Shown: positions 17,015 to 24,000, counted from the stretch's first letter. The stretch: DNA of 24,000 nt from Nocardioidaceae bacterium (GCA_030655315.1 JAURVT010000053.1:11917-35916), one strand, 5' to 3'. The notes: generated by a model from the sequence alone, not told the origin. Numbers and translations are program-made.

Positions 17015-18231
17015 GCGCCACCGTCCTCGTCCTCGACGGCTTCGGCGTGGGGGCGATGCCCGACGCAGGCGCGCTCCGGCCGTCCGACGCCGGGGCCGAC
17101 ACCCTCGGCCACCTCGTGCGCTGGTGCGCCGACGAGCGAGGCGAGCCCCTGCGCGTCCCGCACCTGGCGTCCTGCGGGCTCGACGCGCTGCGTCCCGACC
17201 TGCGGCTCGACACCACGGGCGGGGCGGCGGTGCGGGCCGTGGCCCGGCGGGCGGCCCTGGGGTATCCCGGCGCCGACAGCTTCGCCGGTCACCAGACGAT
17301 GATGGGGGCGGACCTGTCGCACGTGGCGCTGAGCCGGGTGGGGGAGTGTCTGGACGAGGTGGTGGACGCGCTCGAGCGGGCGGGGCACCGGTGCCGGTTG
17401 CTCGACGGCCGTCCGCTCGTCGTCGTCGACGACCACCTGCTCCTGCACGACAACCTCGAGGCCGACCCCGGCCTGAACTGGAACGTCTCGGCGAGCCTGG
17501 ACGAGGTGTCGTGGGAGGCGGTCGTCGACGTCGCCACCGTGGCGCGCCGGGTGGCACCGGTGGCGCGCGTGATCGCGGTCGGCGGGCACTCCCAGGCACC
17601 CCTGGTGCGGGCGGTCCGCGACGGCGCGGAGGGGACGGTCGGCCTCGACACCCCCGCGAGCGGCTTCTACCGCAACGGTGGTCTCCGGGTGCAGCACATG
17701 GGCGTCGCGATCGACCACGCCCAGCAGCTGCCCGAGCTGGCGGCCAGGTCGGGCCTGGGCGTCACGCTGCTCGGGAAGGCGGCCGACCTCCTGGTGACCG
17801 ACACCGAGGTGCACCGGGTGCCGGGGGTCGACACCACCGAGCTGCTGGCGGCCACCACGACCGCCGTCGCCGGCGGCGGGCTCGTCGTGGCCAACGTCCA
17901 GCAGACCGACCTCGCCGGGCACCAGCGCGACCCGGGTCGCTTCGCCGCCCTGCTGGAGGAGGTCGACGCCGCGATTCCGGCGATGCTGGCGCACCTCGCC
18001 CCGGCGGACCTGCTCGTCGTCACCGCCGACCACGGCAACGACCCCACCGCCGGCCACGCCTTCCACACCCGCGAGCACGCGCCGGTGCTGGCCGTCGTCC
18101 CCGGGCGGGGACCGGCCCGCGCGGCCACCGACCTGCCGACCCTGGCCGACGTCGGCGGAGGCGTCGCCCGCCATCTCGGGCTGGACGTCTCCCGCCTCGG
18201 CAACGGCCGCGGCGTCGTCCTGCTCGGCTGA
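17011..18231 (+). CDS. yhfW: YhfW-like phosphopentomutase/metalloenzyme-superfamily (alkaline-phosphatase fold) mutase
   Basis: 406 aa. GTGA overlap with yhfX. N-terminal VLVLDGFGVGAMPDA and C-terminal DLAGHQRD...LLVVTADHGNDPT...HTREHAP are the DeoB-type metal-binding motifs. Confidence 0.75.
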   Translation: MSATVLVLDGFGVGAMPDAGALRPSDAGADTLGHLVRWCADERGEPLRVPHLASCGLDALRPDLRLDTTGGAAVRAVARRAALGYPGADSFAGHQTMMGADLSHVALSRVGECLDEVVDALERAGHRCRLLDGRPLVVVDDHLLLHDNLEADPGLNWNVSASLDEVSWEAVVDVATVARRVAPVARVIAVGGHSQAPLVRAVRDGAEGTVGLDTPASGFYRNGGLRVQHMGVAIDHAQQLPELAARSGLGVTLLGKAADLLVTDTEVHRVPGVDTTELLAATTTAVAGGGLVVANVQQTDLAGHQRDPGRFAALLEEVDAAIPAMLAHLAPADLLVVTADHGNDPTAGHAFHTREHAPVLAVVPGRGPARAATDLPTLADVGGGVARHLGLDVSRLGNGRGVVLLG

Positions 18232-18304: not shown

Positions 18305-18381
18305 CGCGGGGTGGAGCAGCTCGGTAGCTCGCTGGGCTCATAACCCAGAGGTCACAGGTTCAAATCCTGTCCCCGCTACCA
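18305..18381 (+). tRNA. Initiator tRNA-Met (tRNA-fMet, anticodon CAU) with encoded CCA
   Basis: 77-nt cloverleaf folded by hand. Acceptor CGCGGGG/CCCCGCT with a C1xU72 mismatch. D arm GAGC-AGCTCGGTA-GCTC. Anticodon stem CTGGG/CCCAG with three consecutive G:C pairs next to the loop CTCATAA. T arm ACAGG-TTCAAAT-CCTGT. Discriminator A followed by CCA. The 1:72 mismatch and the GGG/CCC anticodon stem are initiator hallmarks. Confidence 0.93.
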
Positions 18382-20179
18382 AGAATGATTCGTTAGAACC
18401 TCGGACCTTTGAAGGTCCGGGGTTCTTTCGTTCCCATGGGAGGGCGCCTCTGGGGCGTTCGAGGCCCAAGAATGCGCGCAGACGGTCGCCGGGCGTCGTC
18501 CTGGTGGACCGAGGCGCCAGGTCCTTTGACCCGTTCGAGTCACCCCTGTCGGCCGATTCGGTGACCTCTGGCATGAGGAATAGGTCACTGGTTCTAACGA
18601 GACGCTTCTGCTCACGTCGCCGCTCGTTGGCTAGATCATCGACCAGAGCCGGAGACATGAGCCTCTGGAAGGCACCGGTCAGGTCGCTGCCCACCACTTC
18701 GTCGTCGTCGATGTAGATGTGCTCGAAGACCCCTTGGTTCAGTTCGCGTCGGATCGTGTCGGAGGCGTTCGCGTAGTGCTCGTGGGCACTCGTCAATAAT
18801 TCGCAGCACTCCAGCAGCTTCTGTTGAAGCCGTTCGGTTGGGGTGGCGGCTTGCTTCAGCTTGTGTTCGGCCAGCGCTCGTCGCCCCGCGATGCGCTGCT
18901 GCTCGCTCTTCAGCTGATCTAGCGCGATGGCATCTGCGTAGTGAGCCTGCAGCAGCTTCTGGCTCTGACTCTCCAATTCTCGTAGTTCCCTCTCGGCTGC
19001 CATCCGCTCGGCCTCGACTTGTGGTGTCACTGTGTCGATGTGCTCGAGGACAAGCTCCCGGATTCGCTGTACTGAGGCGCGGCTCAAGGTGATCGTGCGC
19101 CAGTGGTCTTCCACCAGTTGCTCGACGAGGTGCACTTGGGTGGCGCGGAAGGTGCATCCGTTCTTCTGGCGTTGGCGGCCGAGGCAGTAGAAGTAGTCGT
19201 AGAGGTCGCCGCGGGCGTTGCGGCTCTTCTCGTAGGCGAGCGGTTCGCCGCATTGGCCGCAGTAGACGGACCCCTTGAGGTACACGCTGTGTACTCGGGG
19301 CTTCTCTCCGCTCTGGTGTCGGGCCTCCCGAATCTGTTGAACACGAGCGAACTGCTCCTCGGAGACGAGGGCTTCGTGCTTGCCCCGATATTCGACGCCG
19401 CCGTACACCACCACGCCCACGTAGTAGCGGTTCTTCAGGATGCTGTTGACGTGTGACGTGGCGATGGGTCGCGCCGGTCGGTTGGGTCGAGGAAGCGTCG
19501 TGACTCCGTACAGGTTGAGTTCGTCGCGAATGGACGCCGCGGTGGAGTTCCCCTCGGTGTACCGATCGAAGATCCAACGAACCCAGCGGGCGCGCTCAGG
19601 GTCGAGAACGACGGTGCGTACCTCTCGACCATCAGCGGTACGTTCGCGCGAGTTGAGGTAACCGAACGGAGCCATGCCTGGAGTGCCACCACCCTTGGCC
19701 TTCTGCAGCATGCCCTTCTTGGACTCCGTCGCGAGATTCTGGCTGTAGAACTCTGCGATCGAGCTCATGATCCCGTGCAAGAGCATGCCGCTGGGCGTCT
19801 CGTCGATGTTTTCCGAACAACTGACGAGCTGCGAGCCTGCCTGAGTGATCTGCAGATTGATCTCAACGTCATCGACACGGTTGCGTGCGAGGCGATCGAC
19901 CTTGTGGACGATGACGTACTTGACTCGGTGCTTAGCCACGTAATCCAGCATGTTCTTCAACTGGGGGCGGTTTGCCGAGCGTGCGCTCTCGCCAGCGTCG
20001 ACGAATTCACCGACGACTTGGGCTCCCAAGGCTTGGGCTTTGCGGAGGCAGCCGTCACGTTGCGCCGGGATCGAAAACCCTTCCACCTCGCCGCCGCGTC
20101 CGGCCTGCTCCTTGGTGCTCACACGGAGGTAGATCACTGCCATCGGCATGACGGTCATCTCCGGGGCCGGATTGCTCAT
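18338..20179 (-). CDS. Large serine recombinase (resolvase/invertase catalytic domain + recombinase domain + zinc ribbon + coiled coil)
   Basis: Start at ATG 20179 (MSNPAPEMTVMPMAVIYLRVSTKEQ...), preceded by AAGGAG and overlapping the ImmA stop (ATGA). Catalytic Ser lies in YLRVSTKEQ, followed by VIVHKVDRLARN. The recombinase domain has PFGY...VLDPERARWVRWIF, the zinc ribbon has CGQCGEPL...YFYCLGRQRQKNGC, and a coiled-coil segment follows. The track ORF (18338..20683) is extended 168 codons upstream through the ImmA gene, and I reject that extension. The last ~100 codons are unconserved-looking and run through the tRNA terminator into the tRNA antisense strand. Confidence 0.9.
   Translation of the reverse strand: MSNPAPEMTVMPMAVIYLRVSTKEQAGRGGEVEGFSIPAQRDGCLRKAQALGAQVVGEFVDAGESARSANRPQLKNMLDYVAKHRVKYVIVHKVDRLARNRVDDVEINLQITQAGSQLVSCSENIDETPSGMLLHGIMSSIAEFYSQNLATESKKGMLQKAKGGGTPGMAPFGYLNSRERTADGREVRTVVLDPERARWVRWIFDRYTEGNSTAASIRDELNLYGVTTLPRPNRPARPIATSHVNSILKNRYYVGVVVYGGVEYRGKHEALVSEEQFARVQQIREARHQSGEKPRVHSVYLKGSVYCGQCGEPLAYEKSRNARGDLYDYFYCLGRQRQKNGCTFRATQVHLVEQLVEDHWRTITLSRASVQRIRELVLEHIDTVTPQVEAERMAAERELRELESQSQKLLQAHYADAIALDQLKSEQQRIAGRRALAEHKLKQAATPTERLQQKLLECCELLTSAHEHYANASDTIRRELNQGVFEHIYIDDDEVVGSDLTGAFQRLMSPALVDDLANERRREQKRLVRTSDLFLMPEVTESADRGDSNGSKDLAPRSTRTTPGDRLRAFLGLERPRGALPWERKNPGPSKVRGSNESFLVAGTGFEPVTSGL
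18396..18432 (+). terminator. Intrinsic terminator downstream of the tRNA
   Basis: GAACC(T)CGGACC-TTTGAA-GGTCCG(G)GGTTC followed by TTTCGTT. This is a stem-loop plus T-rich tail, 15 nt after the CCA end. Confidence 0.7.
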
Positions 20180-20835
20180 GCATAGCTCCTTCGGTTGAGC
20201 CCGTTGCGGGCGTAACGGAATCGTTGAGGGCGAGATCGAGGGCCGCGGATAGGGCGAGCGCATCGGGGTGCGGGAAGTCGATCTACGTCGGTGTCGAGGC
20301 CGGTCTGTGCCAGTCGGACACGGATGGCTTGCTCGCTGACATGGAAGTGGGAGGCCAGCAGGGATGGTCGCTGTAAGCCGTTGCCCCACGCGCTCTTGAG
20401 CTCTCGCTTGCTCACGAGTGCGCAACCGGCGAAATAGTCGGCGGCGAGTTCGGCCTGCTCCTGTGCGCTCTTGGATCGGTTGGTTCGGTAGAGGCGCTGG
20501 ACTGAACCGTGGTCGATGATGTGCTTGAACTCGTGCAGCAGCGTGAAGCGCTGGCGAGCGGGAGCATCGTGGGAGGCGATCGCGATCAGCCACTCGGTGC
20601 CTGTCCAGTGGCTCATGCCGCTGACGGGCAGATCGGTCTCGAAGACGACGCGGACGCGGGGGAGCCCATCGATGTGGTGCCACCGGATGCCGTCGCTGTG
20701 ATCCTCAACCAGAAGTTCAGCGACTCGCGTTGCCTGTCGCTCGGCAACCACCAGGGCTTCCCCGAACGTGCAGTCGCGGGCTGGGATGAGCGAACGGAGG
20801 CGCTTCAGGATAGATGGTGATGTTGATTGATTCAT
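20176..20835 (-). CDS. ImmA/IrrE-family HEXXH metallopeptidase
   Basis: 219 aa. Motif FTLLHEFKHIIDH (HEXXH), with a downstream EQAELAADYFAGCALV (E..AN.FA-like) motif typical of ImmA/IrrE. AAGGAGG lies 6 nt upstream of the ATG. The gene sits immediately downstream of an XRE HTH gene. Confidence 0.85.
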   Translation of the reverse strand: MNQSTSPSILKRLRSLIPARDCTFGEALVVAERQATRVAELLVEDHSDGIRWHHIDGLPRVRVVFETDLPVSGMSHWTGTEWLIAIASHDAPARQRFTLLHEFKHIIDHGSVQRLYRTNRSKSAQEQAELAADYFAGCALVSKRELKSAWGNGLQRPSLLASHFHVSEQAIRVRLAQTGLDTDVDRLPAPRCARPIRGPRSRPQRFRYARNGLNRRSYA

Positions 20836-20865
20836 GGTGCGCCTCCTTTCAGTGTGGCTGGTGTG

Positions 20866-21249
20866 TTATTCGTCTTCGCCGGGATTTGGTCCGGCTTCCG
20901 ACATGCCGTAGCGCTCAGCAATGCGCGTGAACGAAGCTGCGAGCTCGGATTGCGCTTCGGGGGGGAGCTGGGAATATTTGCTCCGGAGGTATGGGCTGAA
21001 GGTCGGCAATCCCTGAGCAGGTACATAGCCGGCTGCTGTGTAGAGGTCGATTAGCTCTACGTCCAGAGTGGACGCGAGCGAATTGAGGACGTGGGGGTTC
21101 GGAGATGCGACGTTGTCCTGCTCCATGTTGCCCAGCAGAGACTTCGAGATCCCTGTCTCCGCCTCAACTTCGCGCAAACTCAATCCCGCAGCTTCTCGTG
21201 CTCGTTTGAGAAGTTGTCCGAATGTGGTTGCTGTCGATTCGTCGGTCAT
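20866..21249 (-). CDS. XRE-family helix-turn-helix transcriptional regulator (ImmR-like)
   Basis: FGQLLKRAREAAGLSLREVEAETGISKSLLGNMEQD is a classic Cro/C1 HTH. The start is either ATG 21249 (MTDESTATT...) or ATG 21276, which gives 9 extra AT-rich codons. I prefer 21249 but cannot decide. Confidence 0.85.
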   Translation of the reverse strand: MTDESTATTFGQLLKRAREAAGLSLREVEAETGISKSLLGNMEQDNVASPNPHVLNSLASTLDVELIDLYTAAGYVPAQGLPTFSPYLRSKYSQLPPEAQSELAASFTRIAERYGMSEAGPNPGEDE

Positions 21250-21368
21250 GTGATTAGGTAGTCCATATTTATTCAATCGTCTATATCTATTCTAATTCAT
21301 TTGTCCCAATTTGGGGACAGGAAATCCAATTCCACAACACAGAGCATTTCTCGATAAGTTGTAGTTGT

Positions 21369-21410
21369 GGGGCGGGAGTCGAACGGCAGAACGCCGCCCA
21401 ACTCCCGCCC
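21369..21410 (-). terminator. Strong GC-rich hairpin after the RHH gene (probable terminator separating two operons)
   Basis: GGGCGGGAGT-(22 nt with an inner GGC/GCC pairing)-ACTCCCGCCC is a perfect 10-bp outer stem, 15 nt downstream of the RHH stop on the minus strand. There is no U-tract. Confidence 0.5.
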
Positions 21411-21424
21411 TGGTGGAGGTGCTG

Positions 21425-21688
21425 TCAGCTGCTCTTGGCTCGCCCGCGAGCGGCAGGCTTGGTGCCGAAGAGTTGCGCGATAGCTGCATGCTGCTCGGCG
21501 GCCTCACGCTCGATCGTGGCGGTGAGCTCCTCGGCCTTGGCCGAGAGCTCGGGGTTGGTCGCCATCGAGTCGAGTTGCCGCTCAACCGCGGAACGGATGA
21601 CGTCCGTCACCGATTCGCCACTGAGCTTCGCCAGGATGTTGAGTCGAGCATGCTGCTCGTCTTCCAGCCGGATTGCCAGAGTCTTCAT
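21425..21688 (-). CDS. Ribbon-helix-helix (CopG/Arc/MetJ-like) DNA-binding protein
   Basis: MKTLAIRLEDEQHARLNILAKLSGESVTDVIRSAVERQL shows the beta-strand/helix/helix RHH pattern (hydrophobic-polar alternation, then two helices). Alternative start is ATG 21700 (MQVVMK...), directly abutting GAGAGGAG. The track ORF 21425..22408 is over-extended through the ArdA gene. Confidence 0.6.
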   Translation of the reverse strand: MKTLAIRLEDEQHARLNILAKLSGESVTDVIRSAVERQLDSMATNPELSAKAEELTATIEREAAEQHAAIAQLFGTKPAARGRAKSS

Positions 21689-21836
21689 GACTACTTGCAT
21701 CTCCTCTCTGAGGGACTGCCTCGCCGCACTGCCATGGCCACGCGGCCATAACCGGCGAGCCACCTCCTCGGGGTGGTGCAGCCGTACTCTCGAATGAGAG
21801 CTGAGGACGACTGCAGGCTCCCGAGGAGCTGGTGTC

Positions 21837-22412
21837 CTAGATTGAACGGAAGACCCAGACGCCGCCGTCGTCGGCGTCTTCGACCGCGACGTCGCCGCTG
21901 ATCTGCGCGTCCCGTGCCCACCCCTCGTAGTCGATCTGGACGTAGCCGCGAAGGGCCGCTGGCACTGCTTCGTCGAGCTGCTTCTCCAAGTCGAGGTCGC
22001 CGATGGTTTCTCGTGCCCAGTCCTCGCCGCTGGTGAAGTGACCCATGTAGGCGTCGCTGAATCCGTCGAGGAAATCAGGTGTTCCATCGTGGAGGTATGC
22101 GAAGGCAGCGAAAGCCGGACCGTGCTCCGCGATGCCGCGTGCCACTCTTGCGACGTGGTCAAGAGGTTCGTACTCGTCAGGCCGGTAGCTTCCGAATTCG
22201 TCGTAGTCGAAGATGGCGAACTCCTCCGCCCCAGGGTCGGGACTGGCAGCCAGAATGGCGCGGACGGATTCGTTGAGCGTGTCGGTGTCGACGGCGGCAT
22301 CGATCCACTCGCCGTGAAGCCGTCCAGCGTTGTAATCGGAGAGGCTGCCGACCCAGATCCGCGGCCGTAGCCTGGGTTCGTGTTCGTGTTCGTGTGGTTG
22401 TTGTTCATGCAT
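21837..22412 (-). CDS. ardA: ArdA anti-restriction protein (type I R-M inhibitor, DNA mimic)
   Basis: 191 aa, very acidic. RIWVGSLSDYNAGRLHGEWIDA, EEFAIFDYDEFG and YVQIDYEGWARDAQISGDVAVE...GVWVFR align by eye with Tn916 Orf18/ArdA (YIANLGKYNEGELVGAWF, EEYAIHDYE, YIDYQAYGRDLDLSG...). AAAGGAGG RBS. The start overlaps the methyltransferase stop by 8 nt. Confidence 0.9.
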   Translation of the reverse strand: MHEQQPHEHEHEPRLRPRIWVGSLSDYNAGRLHGEWIDAAVDTDTLNESVRAILAASPDPGAEEFAIFDYDEFGSYRPDEYEPLDHVARVARGIAEHGPAFAAFAYLHDGTPDFLDGFSDAYMGHFTSGEDWARETIGDLDLEKQLDEAVPAALRGYVQIDYEGWARDAQISGDVAVEDADDGGVWVFRSI

Positions 22413-23460
22413 AGTCACCTCCTTTCGATTGATTGCTTGGTCGTGTACTGGCGATGCGATGGTTCGCCAGCGCGACGTACTCCGGGTTGAGTTCGATGCC
22501 CATCCAGTCGCGGCCGAGTGCTTCTGCGGCGACCGCCGTGGTGCCCGCTCCCATGAAGGGATCCAGGACGAGACCCGATTCATGGTCCGCATGACAGTGA
22601 CAGTCCGGCCGTAGTGCCAGCCGTGTCGCCGTCGCACCGAGCCGCCGAATCGGACGGGACCACGGAGTGCGACAGCGGACGCAGCGCTGTTCGGGACAGG
22701 CGGCACGCAAGATGCGTTCCACGAGAGCTGGTGGATACGTCGCGAAGTGCGCGCCTCGATATCGGCTGGTGCTGATCGTCCAGACATCGCCGGGGTTCTT
22801 GCCGAGCGGATGTCCAGCGAGCCCACGGCGATGAAGGTTCGCGAGGCCGCTGTCGCCGTCCGCGTTGGGACCGAGCCATGTCGGGCGCAGCTTGTCGGTG
22901 CCCTTCTTCGGGCCACGCCCGTCCAGCCGGGGCTTTGGACGAGAGGTATGTGGTGTGCGGATCGCGTGCAGATCGAAGAAGTAGGCGGCTCTACGGGTGA
23001 GCGAGTAGACGACCTCGTAGGTGCAGGACAGCCGGTCGGTGACACTGCTCGGGATCGGATTCGACTTGGCCCAGATGACCTTGTTCCGGACAACCCACCC
23101 GTCCTCGATAAGGGCCAAGAGCAGACGTTCGGGGGCACCCAGCAGGCTCTTCCTCGGGGCACCTTCTCGCGGGTGGGTGCTGTAGGCGTCGCCGAGGTTG
23201 AGCCAGAGGGTGCCGGTCGGCACCAGGAGTCGCTCGGCCTGGCGGGTGACTACTTGGAGGTCGGACACCCACTCGTCGACGCTCGCCTCCAGACCGATCT
23301 GATCCGTCGCGTTGTAGTCGCGCAGCCGGAAGTAGGGCGGGCTCGTGACGATTGTGTCGATGGTCGACGACGGCAGCGTGGCCATGTGCGTCGCGGCGTC
23401 TCCGGTCAGGATCTGCCCGCGTGGCAATCCGGCAGGGTGGTCGACTGCCACCGCCGTCAT
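22405..23460 (-). CDS. Orphan beta-class N4-C/N6-A DNA methyltransferase (motif IV SPPY N-terminal, AdoMet motif I C-terminal)
   Basis: Start at ATG 23460 (MTAVAVDHP...), after GGAGG plus a 6-nt spacer, with an ATGA overlap to the upstream gene. Motifs are DTIVTSPPYF (catalytic), LWLNLGD, VIWAKSNP and a C-terminal LVLDPFMGAGTTAVAA (FxGxG). A Cys/His-rich insert is present (CPEQRCVRCRTPW...PDCHCHADH). No restriction endonuclease gene is visible in the window. The track ORF is over-extended to 23664. Confidence 0.85.
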   Translation of the reverse strand: MTAVAVDHPAGLPRGQILTGDAATHMATLPSSTIDTIVTSPPYFRLRDYNATDQIGLEASVDEWVSDLQVVTRQAERLLVPTGTLWLNLGDAYSTHPREGAPRKSLLGAPERLLLALIEDGWVVRNKVIWAKSNPIPSSVTDRLSCTYEVVYSLTRRAAYFFDLHAIRTPHTSRPKPRLDGRGPKKGTDKLRPTWLGPNADGDSGLANLHRRGLAGHPLGKNPGDVWTISTSRYRGAHFATYPPALVERILRAACPEQRCVRCRTPWSRPIRRLGATATRLALRPDCHCHADHESGLVLDPFMGAGTTAVAAEALGRDWMGIELNPEYVALANHRIASTRPSNQSKGGDYA

Positions 23461-24000
23461 GATGAGCCTCCGCTGAGGACGCTTGCCACTGTGTGGGGAA
23501 CGGCGAAGCGATAGAGCTCGGGGGTGAGGCGTGGAGTCTTGGCGACAGCTTCGCGGAGTCGACGAGCCCGCGATGGGTCGCTGAACACCCAGAGCACCAA
23601 CGGGAAGCTTCCGTGCGCCTGCTGCTCCTGCCCACTGGCCAGGTAGGTCTCGTAGTGACCGCACTTCCTAAGCAGGGTCGGCAGGCTCTCGGTGCCGAGG
23701 TCCACCTCGATGAACCATCGGTCCTCGTAGTCAGCGGTCGCGATGGTGGCGGCCAGATCAGGCTGAAGCCACTTGGGCTCGCCGCCTGGCCCGGTGTAGC
23801 GGCGCCAGCAGTCGGGTTCGACTTCAACGCGGATGTCCTCGATGGTCTCGATCGCGCGGTGACGACTGAGCAATACGTGGACATCCCCGACAGCCAGGCA
23901 GTGACGCAGGAATCGCAGGCTGGGCTCGCTCGTGCGGTAGGTCGCGCCGTCGCTTTGAACGAGTCGAGCACCGCCGGGAGCGAGCTGCCAGATGCGAGCA
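23457..24000 (-). CDS. Replication-relaxation (Replic_Relax) family protein, N-terminus beyond window end
   Basis: The track lists 23457..23873 from a TTG. Hand translation shows the same frame stays open to position 24000 (...ARIWQLAPGGARLVQSDGATYRTSEPSLRFLRHCLAVGDVHVLLSRHRAIE...). ...FLRHCLAVGDVHV... and ...WFIEVDLGTESLPTLLRKCGHYETY... resemble the family found on actinobacterial plasmids and ICEs. Recognition is from memory. Confidence 0.6.
   Translation of the reverse strand, partial: ARIWQLAPGGARLVQSDGATYRTSEPSLRFLRHCLAVGDVHVLLSRHRAIETIEDIRVEVEPDCWRRYTGPGGEPKWLQPDLAATIATADYEDRWFIEVDLGTESLPTLLRKCGHYETYLASGQEQQAHGSFPLVLWVFSDPSRARRLREAVAKTPRLTPELYRFAVPHTVASVLSGGSS

Follow-up and report, generated by a model that had tools for sequence, protein, structure and literature searches.

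An integrative element at an initiator tRNA gene carries a large serine recombinase gene that appears to be divided by its own integration

We analyzed a 24,000-nucleotide stretch of the genome of a Nocardioidaceae bacterium (hereafter the window; C12:11917-35916 of assembly G000, 4.18 Mb), in which GC content falls sharply just beyond the gene for the initiator tRNA-Met (tRNA-fMet). We propose, with a probability of about 80%, that the low-GC segment is a 23.3-kb integrative element, probably mobilizable, and that its own large serine recombinase (LSR) inserted it at the 3' end of the single tRNA-fMet gene. Reconstruction of the attachment site of the element (attP) places this site within the recombinase gene, with the coding sequence for a helix-turn-helix (HTH) tail left at the far end of the integrated island.

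Results

Extent of the island and its empty site

The initiator tRNA-Met(CAT) gene lies at 18305..18381 on the + strand and is the sole tRNA found by ARAGORN in the window. Its sequence bears the initiator marks of a GGG/CCC anticodon stem (three G-C pairs) and a C1 x U72 mismatch, and neither of the other two CAT tRNAs in the genome is of the initiator type. GC content is 0.75-0.78 up to position 18000 of the window and 0.55-0.67 from 18500 to 24000. An initial annotation of the window, which had proposed a mobile element adjoining this tRNA gene, described the fall correctly and placed the GC content of the segment slightly too low, at 50-62%. Following the contig rightwards reached the other junction: low GC extends from C12 30296 to C12 53592, after which values return to 0.74-0.78. 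The island is 23,297 bp long, with 17.7 kb beyond the window edge, and position 24000 is not a boundary.

Comparison genomes, including those of the family scan below, were sampled at one genome per species. In G001, another species of the same genus, contig C31 carries tRNA-fMet followed ~100 bp later by a DUF1330 gene, with no island between them, while in G000 the DUF1330 gene adjoins the island on its right side. Identity between the two genomes has its left limit exactly after ...GCTACCA and resumes on the right upstream of the DUF1330 start. From this alignment, the C31 locus reads as the empty site, in a different species. With both ends located and a related species empty, the proposal of a mobile element at the initiator tRNA is borne out.

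The first gene of the low-GC segment, correctly named a large serine recombinase in the initial annotation, occupies 18338..20185 on the - strand and encodes 615 aa in the integrated form. Pfam searches revealed a Resolvase catalytic domain (5.8e-32, residues 16-166) with the motif ...IYLRVSTKEQ..., a Recombinase domain (PF07508, 2e-14, residues 196-289) and a zinc ribbon (Zn_ribbon_recom, PF13408, 1.8e-08, residues 303-363). The protein thus combines the catalytic, recombinase and zinc-ribbon domains of LSRs with short att sites lacking long repeats, and recombination of attP with attB is its predicted activity.

Homologous recombinases converge on varied tRNA genes

The family scan recovered 13 loci with relatives at 24-63% identity, distributed among actinomycetes, Coriobacteriia, Desulfomonilaceae, Atribacterota and gut bacteria. 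At every homologous locus with enough flanking sequence (17/17; 24-68% identity, several phyla), the LSR gene and a tRNA gene of the opposite strand are convergent. The target tRNA varies between loci and the convergent geometry is constant. The gene facing the LSR 3' end is tRNA-Pro(CGG) at L027 and L028, tRNA-Pro at L034, tRNA-fMet at L029, tRNA-Met at L031, tRNA-Ile(GAT) at L032 and L037, and tRNA-Arg(TCT) at L033. Paralogues in the same genomes face tRNA-Ala (L043, L045 and L046; Ala(CGC) once and Ala(GGC) twice) and tRNA-Val (L044 and L047; Val(TAC) and Val(GAC)). Homologues in Mycolicibacterium peregrinum, Gordonia alkanivorans and Aeromicrobium sp. (L072, L073 and L074) lie at tRNA-Met, and each called LSR gene overlaps the tRNA by 44 nt, the same as in the window.

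Two further observations concern these loci. Directly upstream of the M. peregrinum LSR at tRNA-Met are genes for a tyrosine integrase and an HTH_17 excisionase-like protein (L072:97-1434), pointing to the stacking of two element types at a single tRNA. ARAGORN also called an 83-nt tRNA-Gly(TCC) inside a recombinase coding region, antisense and ~540 bp from tRNA-Pro (L042:5414-5496, G042:C62). This call is likely to be spurious; McMurdie et al. (PMC3146451) reported a conserved tRNA-like locus within their integration module.

The 3' ends of tRNA genes are classic targets of tyrosine integrases, and an alternative account is that a tyrosine integrase inserted the island and was later lost, the serine recombinase being cargo, a resolvase or part of a nested element. 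Besides the usual habit of tyrosine integrases, this account can draw on the integrase gene next to the LSR at L072 and on several relatives, where repeats of 38-48 bp from the tRNA-fMet 3' end lie close to the resident tRNA-fMet gene, as such islands would leave. Tyrosine-type islands do occupy tRNA-fMet in those relatives, but not at the G000 locus. PF00589 has five matches in the G000 genome and none on contig C12, and Pfam scans of the larger open reading frames (ORFs) of the island revealed no second recombinase. The island contains no tRNA k-mer of 12 nt or longer and no fuzzy copy of the last 18, 25 or 35 nt of the tRNA, and no tRNA-end repeat lies beside it. The recombinase-to-tRNA geometry, moreover, is held at all 17 loci despite varied tRNAs and phyla, and joining the island ends restores the recombinase frame, which is sensible only if those ends are its own att sites. 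Prior insertion by a tyrosine integrase is therefore very improbable.

These results also decide between two options left by the initial annotation. Use by the recombinase of a site in or just beyond tRNA-fMet is supported by the empty site, by the lack of a rival integrase on the contig and by homologues that all abut tRNAs. The other option, in which the real integrase sits at the far end and this recombinase is nested or cargo, is refuted, as the far end lies on C12 and neither a PF00589 match nor a tRNA 3'-end repeat, the pair of features named in advance as pointing that way, was found on C12 or in the island. The accompanying remark that characterized serine integrases avoid tRNA genes is broadly right, with exceptions predicted in two genome surveys (PMC3218068, PMC3146451). 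Elsewhere in the G000 genome, a second CAT tRNA without encoded CCA lies ~430 bp from a tyrosine integrase gene (C17:1443-2451), and a conventional tRNA island probably coexists in this genome.

Junction sequences, crossover and half-sites

The attL junction reads ...CCCCGCTAC CA AGAATGATT CGTTAGAACC, followed by a hairpin, and attR reads ...GGTCTTAGCTTGGGCCAGCGCTAC GCAGGAAC..., the G000 arm ending ...CAGCGCTAC before GCAGGAAC. Their common sequence is only CGCTAC (6 bp), tRNA positions 69-74. The T-arm and 3' acceptor strand of the tRNA constitute the chromosomal (B) half of attL, while the last two tRNA bases, CA (18380-18381), come from the element. They begin its P' half-site, which consists of CA, nine variable bases and CGTTAGAACC (18380..18401, + strand); a stem-loop of the element followed by a T-rich run is found at 18395..18432 on the + strand.

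The origin of the CA is revealed by comparing empty and occupied genes. Among relatives, 8/11 tRNA-fMet genes end ...GCTAC with no encoded CCA, and the empty tRNA-Pro(CGG) genes read ...CCCCGAC followed by CG, AC, AA or AT, whereas two occupied tRNA-Pro sites read ...CCCCGACCA (...GACCA). These observations place the exchange at or before C74, with CA supplied by the element. The same 8/11 count makes the reconstructed attB (...GCTAC + GCAGGAAC) ordinary for the group. The mature tRNA sequence is left unchanged, the element contributing the final CA and a new hairpin.

Serine recombinase polarity requires a non-palindromic crossover dinucleotide. The P arms of two related elements, from Flexivirga (G041) and Leekyejoonella (G042), end ...GGGCGAC and have CGAC in common with tRNA-Pro. 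When the fMet and Pro elements are compared, A73-C74 (18378..18379; C12 53591-53592 in attR) is the one dinucleotide in matching position that is non-palindromic. In it the discriminator base is followed by the first C of CCA, and this dinucleotide is also the dyad centre of attL. We infer that strand exchange occurs at A73-C74. A crossover at the CA of CCA was rejected, since attP would then exceed by one base the natural L071 site described below.

The reverse complement of P' mirrors the tRNA T-loop GGTTCAAA at an equal distance from A73-C74. This dyad was analyzed in the closer clade (the window, L027-L032 and L043-L046; ten members). In 10/10 members, (A/C/G)GAAC is present at +16..+20, with GAAC invariant at +17..+20, while the spacer and the target tRNA vary. 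The P' reverse complement, (G/A/T)GTTC(T/G), is in register with the T-loop GGTTC(A/G)A, 17-20 bases either side of A73-C74 (10/10). The nine-base spacer of P' is not conserved, and B', the sequence downstream of the tRNA, has nothing in common among G000, G041 and G042. These patterns suggest that the chromosomal half-site recognized is the T-arm plus acceptor strand, with P' mirroring the T-loop motif.

The hairpin after P' was folded with RNAalifold from four elements, giving 17 pairs and -25.7 kcal/mol, with 4 pairs maintained by compensatory changes. It takes the place of the host hairpin, now located beyond attR, and is probably a terminator.

An exact inverted copy of the P' motif CGTTAGAACC, namely GGTTCTAACG, lies ~190 bp into the recombinase frame (18392-18401 vs 18590-18599). 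A partly similar GGTTCTAACG-like sequence is present in L029 and none in L027 or L028. The copy could be an accessory binding site or could have arisen by chance.

The recombinase gene is divided between the two ends of the island

The recognizable integrase ends near 18620, and its frame continues through the hairpin and attL to an antisense stop codon at 18338-18340, 44 nt inside the tRNA. The integrated 615-residue product accordingly ends in a 13-residue peptide read from the antisense tRNA strand. No stop precedes the junction in 14/14 family loci, AT-rich ones included. When the P arm (end C12 53592) is joined to P' (start C12 30296), as in an excised circle, the frame runs on for 85 codons to give a 685-residue protein, which shows the reconstructed attP to lie within the recombinase gene. 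The 85-residue tail (C12 53338-53592; L001 18339-18593, - strand) matches the Pfam resolvase DNA-binding domain HTH_7 with 26.1 bits (cut-off 23.8) and, inside the element, lacks its own start codon. A 93-aa ORF in another frame (L001 18281-18562), considered as a terminal HTH gene, had no Pfam match and no homologue in related genomes and was discarded.

A protein search with the tail revealed further copies in G041 and G042, all on the recombinase strand and all beginning at the P arm. The Flexivirga copies lie at the far end of the element (G041:C7, ending 124441, 125713 and 127942; 86 aa each), and the Leekyejoonella copy on a contig other than that of the recombinase (G042:C65, ending 5713; 84 aa). 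When joined at A73-C74, the G041 and G042 tails fuse in frame to their own recombinases. The tails of the three genomes align, with a conserved block K-S/T-T-V-L-R-I-L...G..VRP.G, and conservation is highest in the HTH, 40-80 codons from the P arm. Searches for attR in G041 and G042 with the reverse-complement P' motif or the tRNA core returned nothing beyond background matches in the GC-rich sequence, and the downstream flank of the tRNA-Pro genes of relatives is not syntenic.

Naturally unsplit genes are found in the databases. Among the 120 best of roughly 4,000 homologues, at least 7 are unsplit with an HTH end, and at least 67 end in an antisense T-arm peptide (...GFEP...). P0047 and P0094 end with PF02796 and P0076 with PF13384, all three reading through the junction as ...GSN(3-4 residues)LV/V(A/V)L.... 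The contigs encoding P0094 (L068-L070) share the backbone of the island, with a coupling protein, Replic_Relax, a methyltransferase, ArdA, XRE and ImmA genes, the 627-residue LSR and then cargo, with no tRNA. The L071 gene contains a natural attP that is colinear with the reconstruction, 34 nt separating GGTGTTGG from GTTAGAAC in both. No close homologue, and hence no free form, was found in plasmid and phage collections.

A model for these observations is that the free circle would encode the full-length 685-residue LSR, used for integration. Integration would then remove the HTH tail, leaving a truncated LSR that keeps all canonical serine-integrase domains, and the split might act as a built-in sensor of the integration state or control of direction. 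Such a switch would be built from the DNA itself: the HTH-tailed circle form integrates, and insertion alters or stops its activity without a directionality factor, the enzyme reading the T-loop and acceptor strand, cutting at A73-C74 and using a mirrored attP, with B' nearly irrelevant. We put this full scheme forward tentatively, at odds clearly below even.

Alternatively, the LSR could be the integrase while the tail read-through has no function, a core of ~520 residues being active in both states and the tail being kept through its overlap with the P arm. This explanation gains from the core having every canonical serine-integrase domain, from the poor conservation of the ~90 residues between core and junction, and from more distant family members, near which no HTH tail was found. 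Variable, low-efficiency C-terminal translation was also weighed by McMurdie et al. as a trivial explanation for the similar DsiB (PMC3146451). The P arm, however, spans only about the first 10 tail codons, whereas the conserved HTH lies 40-80 codons further. A DNA-site constraint cannot account for conservation of the HTH, because the HTH lies outside the P arm. It also sits poorly with a tail that lacks a start codon yet is in frame in three genomes and scores above the HTH_7 curated cut-off, and with the absence of a pre-junction stop at all 14 loci, including AT-rich ones, where stops are frequent. We consider a functionless tail unlikely.

Gene content of the element

Beyond the recombinase, the tRNA-proximal part of the element encodes regulators on the same strand. 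An ImmA/IrrE-type M78 metallopeptidase (20176..20835, - strand; Pfam Peptidase_M78 1.7e-17) has a stop codon overlapping the integrase start, a gene order kept in relatives, and is followed by an ImmR-like XRE-family HTH repressor (20866..21276, - strand; Pfam HTH_31, HTH_3). A small ribbon-helix-helix protein (21425..21685, - strand) gave weak matches to PSK_trans_fac, ParD and RHH_1, all under curated cut-offs. Further genes of the - strand encode an ArdA anti-restriction protein (21837..22412; Pfam ArdA 6.3e-33), an orphan N6/N4 DNA methyltransferase (22405..23460; Pfam N6_N4_Mtase 3.7e-42) and, at 23457..24000, the 3' part of a Replic_Relax gene whose start, C12 36344, is outside the window.

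Past the window edge are a VirD4/TrwB-type coupling protein of 782 aa (C12 36341-38689; Pfam TrwB_AAD_bind, T4SS-DNA_transf, TraG-D_C), a YgjP-like metallopeptidase identified by Pfam, and a type I restriction-modification set of hsdM, hsdS and hsdR with an ATPase (C12 41358-51413; Pfam, hsdR matching PADLOC REase_I at E = 0). This ATPase, an SMC/AAA-type protein of 886 residues, adjoins the restriction-modification genes (L001:13754-16414, C12 48753-51413; + strand). Its PADLOC match to Ppl covers only the C-terminal ~120 residues (3.2e-34), and it is a candidate defence gene of unclear type. Pfam and PADLOC scans recognized no VirB4-type or other mating-pore genes and no FtsK-type translocase, several small ORFs having no family match. 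The element looks like an integrative mobilizable element with defence cargo, and its first ~10 kb is syntenic with tRNA-Pro elements of two other genera.

This synteny bears on whether the segment is instead old and fixed, not recently mobile, with att-like features that are mere remnants. In its favor are the degenerate look of the distal 1.9 kb and a presence/absence comparison that covered only one genome per species. Set against these are the empty site in G001, the intact state of the integrase, tail, P arm and P' arm and their colinearity with natural attP sequences, and backbone genes syntenic with elements at other tRNAs in other genera. We give the idea of a fixed segment scarcely any credence.

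Composite structure of the island

A second, inner tail is located at C12 51427-51684 (L001 16428-16685), 1.9 kb inside the right end, and is 44% identical to the outer tail (E 1e-18). After its P arm (...GAGCGAGGACTAC) come CA, an AT-rich stretch, a hairpin and then TTTCGTTCC. The inner junction at C12 51681 resembles attP, a P'-like arm following the P arm. With a spare tail and an internal attP-like junction, the island is a composite of two elements in tandem, a 21.4-kb element at the tRNA and a 1.9-kb remnant, in which the outer tail and P arm are accompanied by a low-GC ORF of 445 residues. The ORF (~45% GC; L001:16939-18276, C12 51938-53275, - strand) had no Pfam match and a weak PADLOC match to ZorA (E 1.4e-4). 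Its GC content is far under that of the host and of the rest of the island, and it is the sole cargo of a remnant flanked by att-like arms.

A related arrangement occurs in Flexivirga, where three units of tail and P arm are present in G041:C7:124189-127944. Copies 1 and 2 are 1,272 bp apart and near-identical, copy 3 follows after a further 2,229 bp, and the same AT-rich sequence and hairpin come after each. These units resemble an array of mini-elements lacking a recombinase, in the manner of cis-mobilizable elements. We infer that an occupied tRNA site can be used again, the tRNA half remaining intact, in agreement with the unconserved B'.

The distal remnant also contains a 28-nt stretch like the 3' half of an AT-rich tRNA (L001:16782-16828, C12 51781-51827), with a T-stem, TTCGATA loop, T-stem and ...GCCCACCA. 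Nine bases and CGTTAGAAC come next, a layout that matches an attL at another tRNA gene. Rfam recognized no tRNA in that island fragment. The stretch may be a fossil junction of an element once at another tRNA.

Discussion

Several points weigh against the interpretation given here. Excision, the circle and the exact cut are predictions from sequence, and the ancestral attB of this strain is a reconstruction, not directly seen. The genome providing the empty site, G001, is ~84% identical in adjacent coding sequence and diverged in intergenic sequence, and its tRNA-fMet does encode CCA. The family loci are related, and their counts do not represent independent trials. The far ends of the elements in G043, G044 and G045 were not found, and no HTH_7 tail occurs near them; a domain-sized tail is established for the closer clade only. 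Far-end candidates in G043 were an insertion sequence fragment or unconvincing and were set aside. Some of the contiguous genes may derive from tandem arrays instead of free circles, and the LSR copy of L071 has no N-terminus. Finally, in the serine integrases studied so far, the spacing of the bound half-sites differs between attB and attP, whereas the B and P' motifs described here are equally spaced, making the recognition model uncertain.

A close parallel in gene layout is found in the DsiB islands of Dehalococcoides at ssrA/tmRNA, in which dsiB always overlaps attL and has no stop inside the island (McMurdie et al. 2011, PMC3146451). In both systems the LSR adjoins attL and converges on the end of a tRNA or tRNA-like gene, with tandem arrays at the site. 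The DsiB islands differ in their ssrA target, a 20-bp direct repeat and an inferred T-loop cut, compared with tRNA-fMet, 6 shared bp and a junction at positions 69-74 in G000. They further differ in having a partner small recombinase, DsiA, whereas no second recombinase was found among the scanned ORFs of the G000 island, and no far-end C-terminal domain has been identified for DsiB. McMurdie et al. speculated that DsiB may be fully functional perhaps only on the circle or beside a neighbouring island (PMC3146451), and this remark is all that we found on split serine integrases. The literature covered, which lay outside subscription journals, contained no description of a far-end C-terminal exon, an A73-C74 crossover or a mirrored T-loop motif.

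Serine recombinases at tRNA genes have also been predicted in eight Mycobacterium elements at tRNA-Leu, and were called rare (Ghinet et al. 2011, PMC3218068; also PMC3429521). Compared by description, these are likewise actinobacterial integrative elements with a serine recombinase predicted at a tRNA gene. They differ in being predictions without junction anatomy or a split gene, in carrying an FtsK-type Tra and Rep, and in their tRNA-Leu target, the Mycolicibacterium homologue of the G000 LSR being at tRNA-Met. G000 likewise departs from the actinomycete integrative and conjugative elements, its 782-aa ATPase not being FtsK and no Rep family being found, with Replic_Relax instead.

Division of an integrase gene by integration at a tRNA is known from SSV1-type integrases of archaeal viruses and plasmids, in which attP lies inside the integrase frame (PMC8371274, PMC7253208). 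The G000 gene is likewise partitioned by integration, as indicated by in-frame fusion in three genomes and by unsplit natural genes. The SSV1-type enzymes are, however, archaeal tyrosine recombinases whose essential parts are separated by the split, which leaves a tRNA-derived direct repeat. G000 encodes a bacterial serine recombinase whose canonical core stays whole, the extra HTH domain alone being removed.

The well-studied integrases of phiC31, Bxb1, A118/LI and TP901-1 and SPbeta SprA have protein-coding or intergenic targets, carry attP outside the integrase gene and depend on a directionality factor encoded separately. The G000 enzyme is like them in its catalytic domain, recombinase domain and zinc ribbon with coiled coil, and in its few shared att bases. 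It differs from phiC31-type integrases in its tRNA-end target, attP within the gene and extra C-terminal HTH_7, and no directionality factor was identified. Its neighbourhood resembles that of ICEBs1 of Bacillus subtilis, in which an XRE repressor, an ImmA-type M78 antirepressor protease and the integrase are also in a row and tRNA-proximal; the ICEBs1 integrase is a tyrosine recombinase. By its ImmR/ImmA module, the G000 element may be inducible by the SOS response.

Insertion of large DNA relies mainly on serine integrases, whose targets are regarded as idiosyncratic sites in genes. The proposed cut of this clade at the discriminator/CCA boundary, with an attP that mirrors the T-loop, points to a recognition rule transferable between tRNAs, whose landing sites are naturally present in every genome. 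An attP inside the gene, with a DNA-binding domain present only in the excised state, was described only for archaeal tyrosine integrases, the remark on DsiB being the sole bacterial hint found. For annotation, at least 67 of the 120 best homologues are truncated, state-dependent gene models ending in an antisense-tRNA peptide. If the split controls direction, the choice that serine integrases make between integration and excision would be explained in a new way. Reading of the T-loop and acceptor strand, if true, would account for the moves of this clade between tRNA species and for its re-use of occupied sites.

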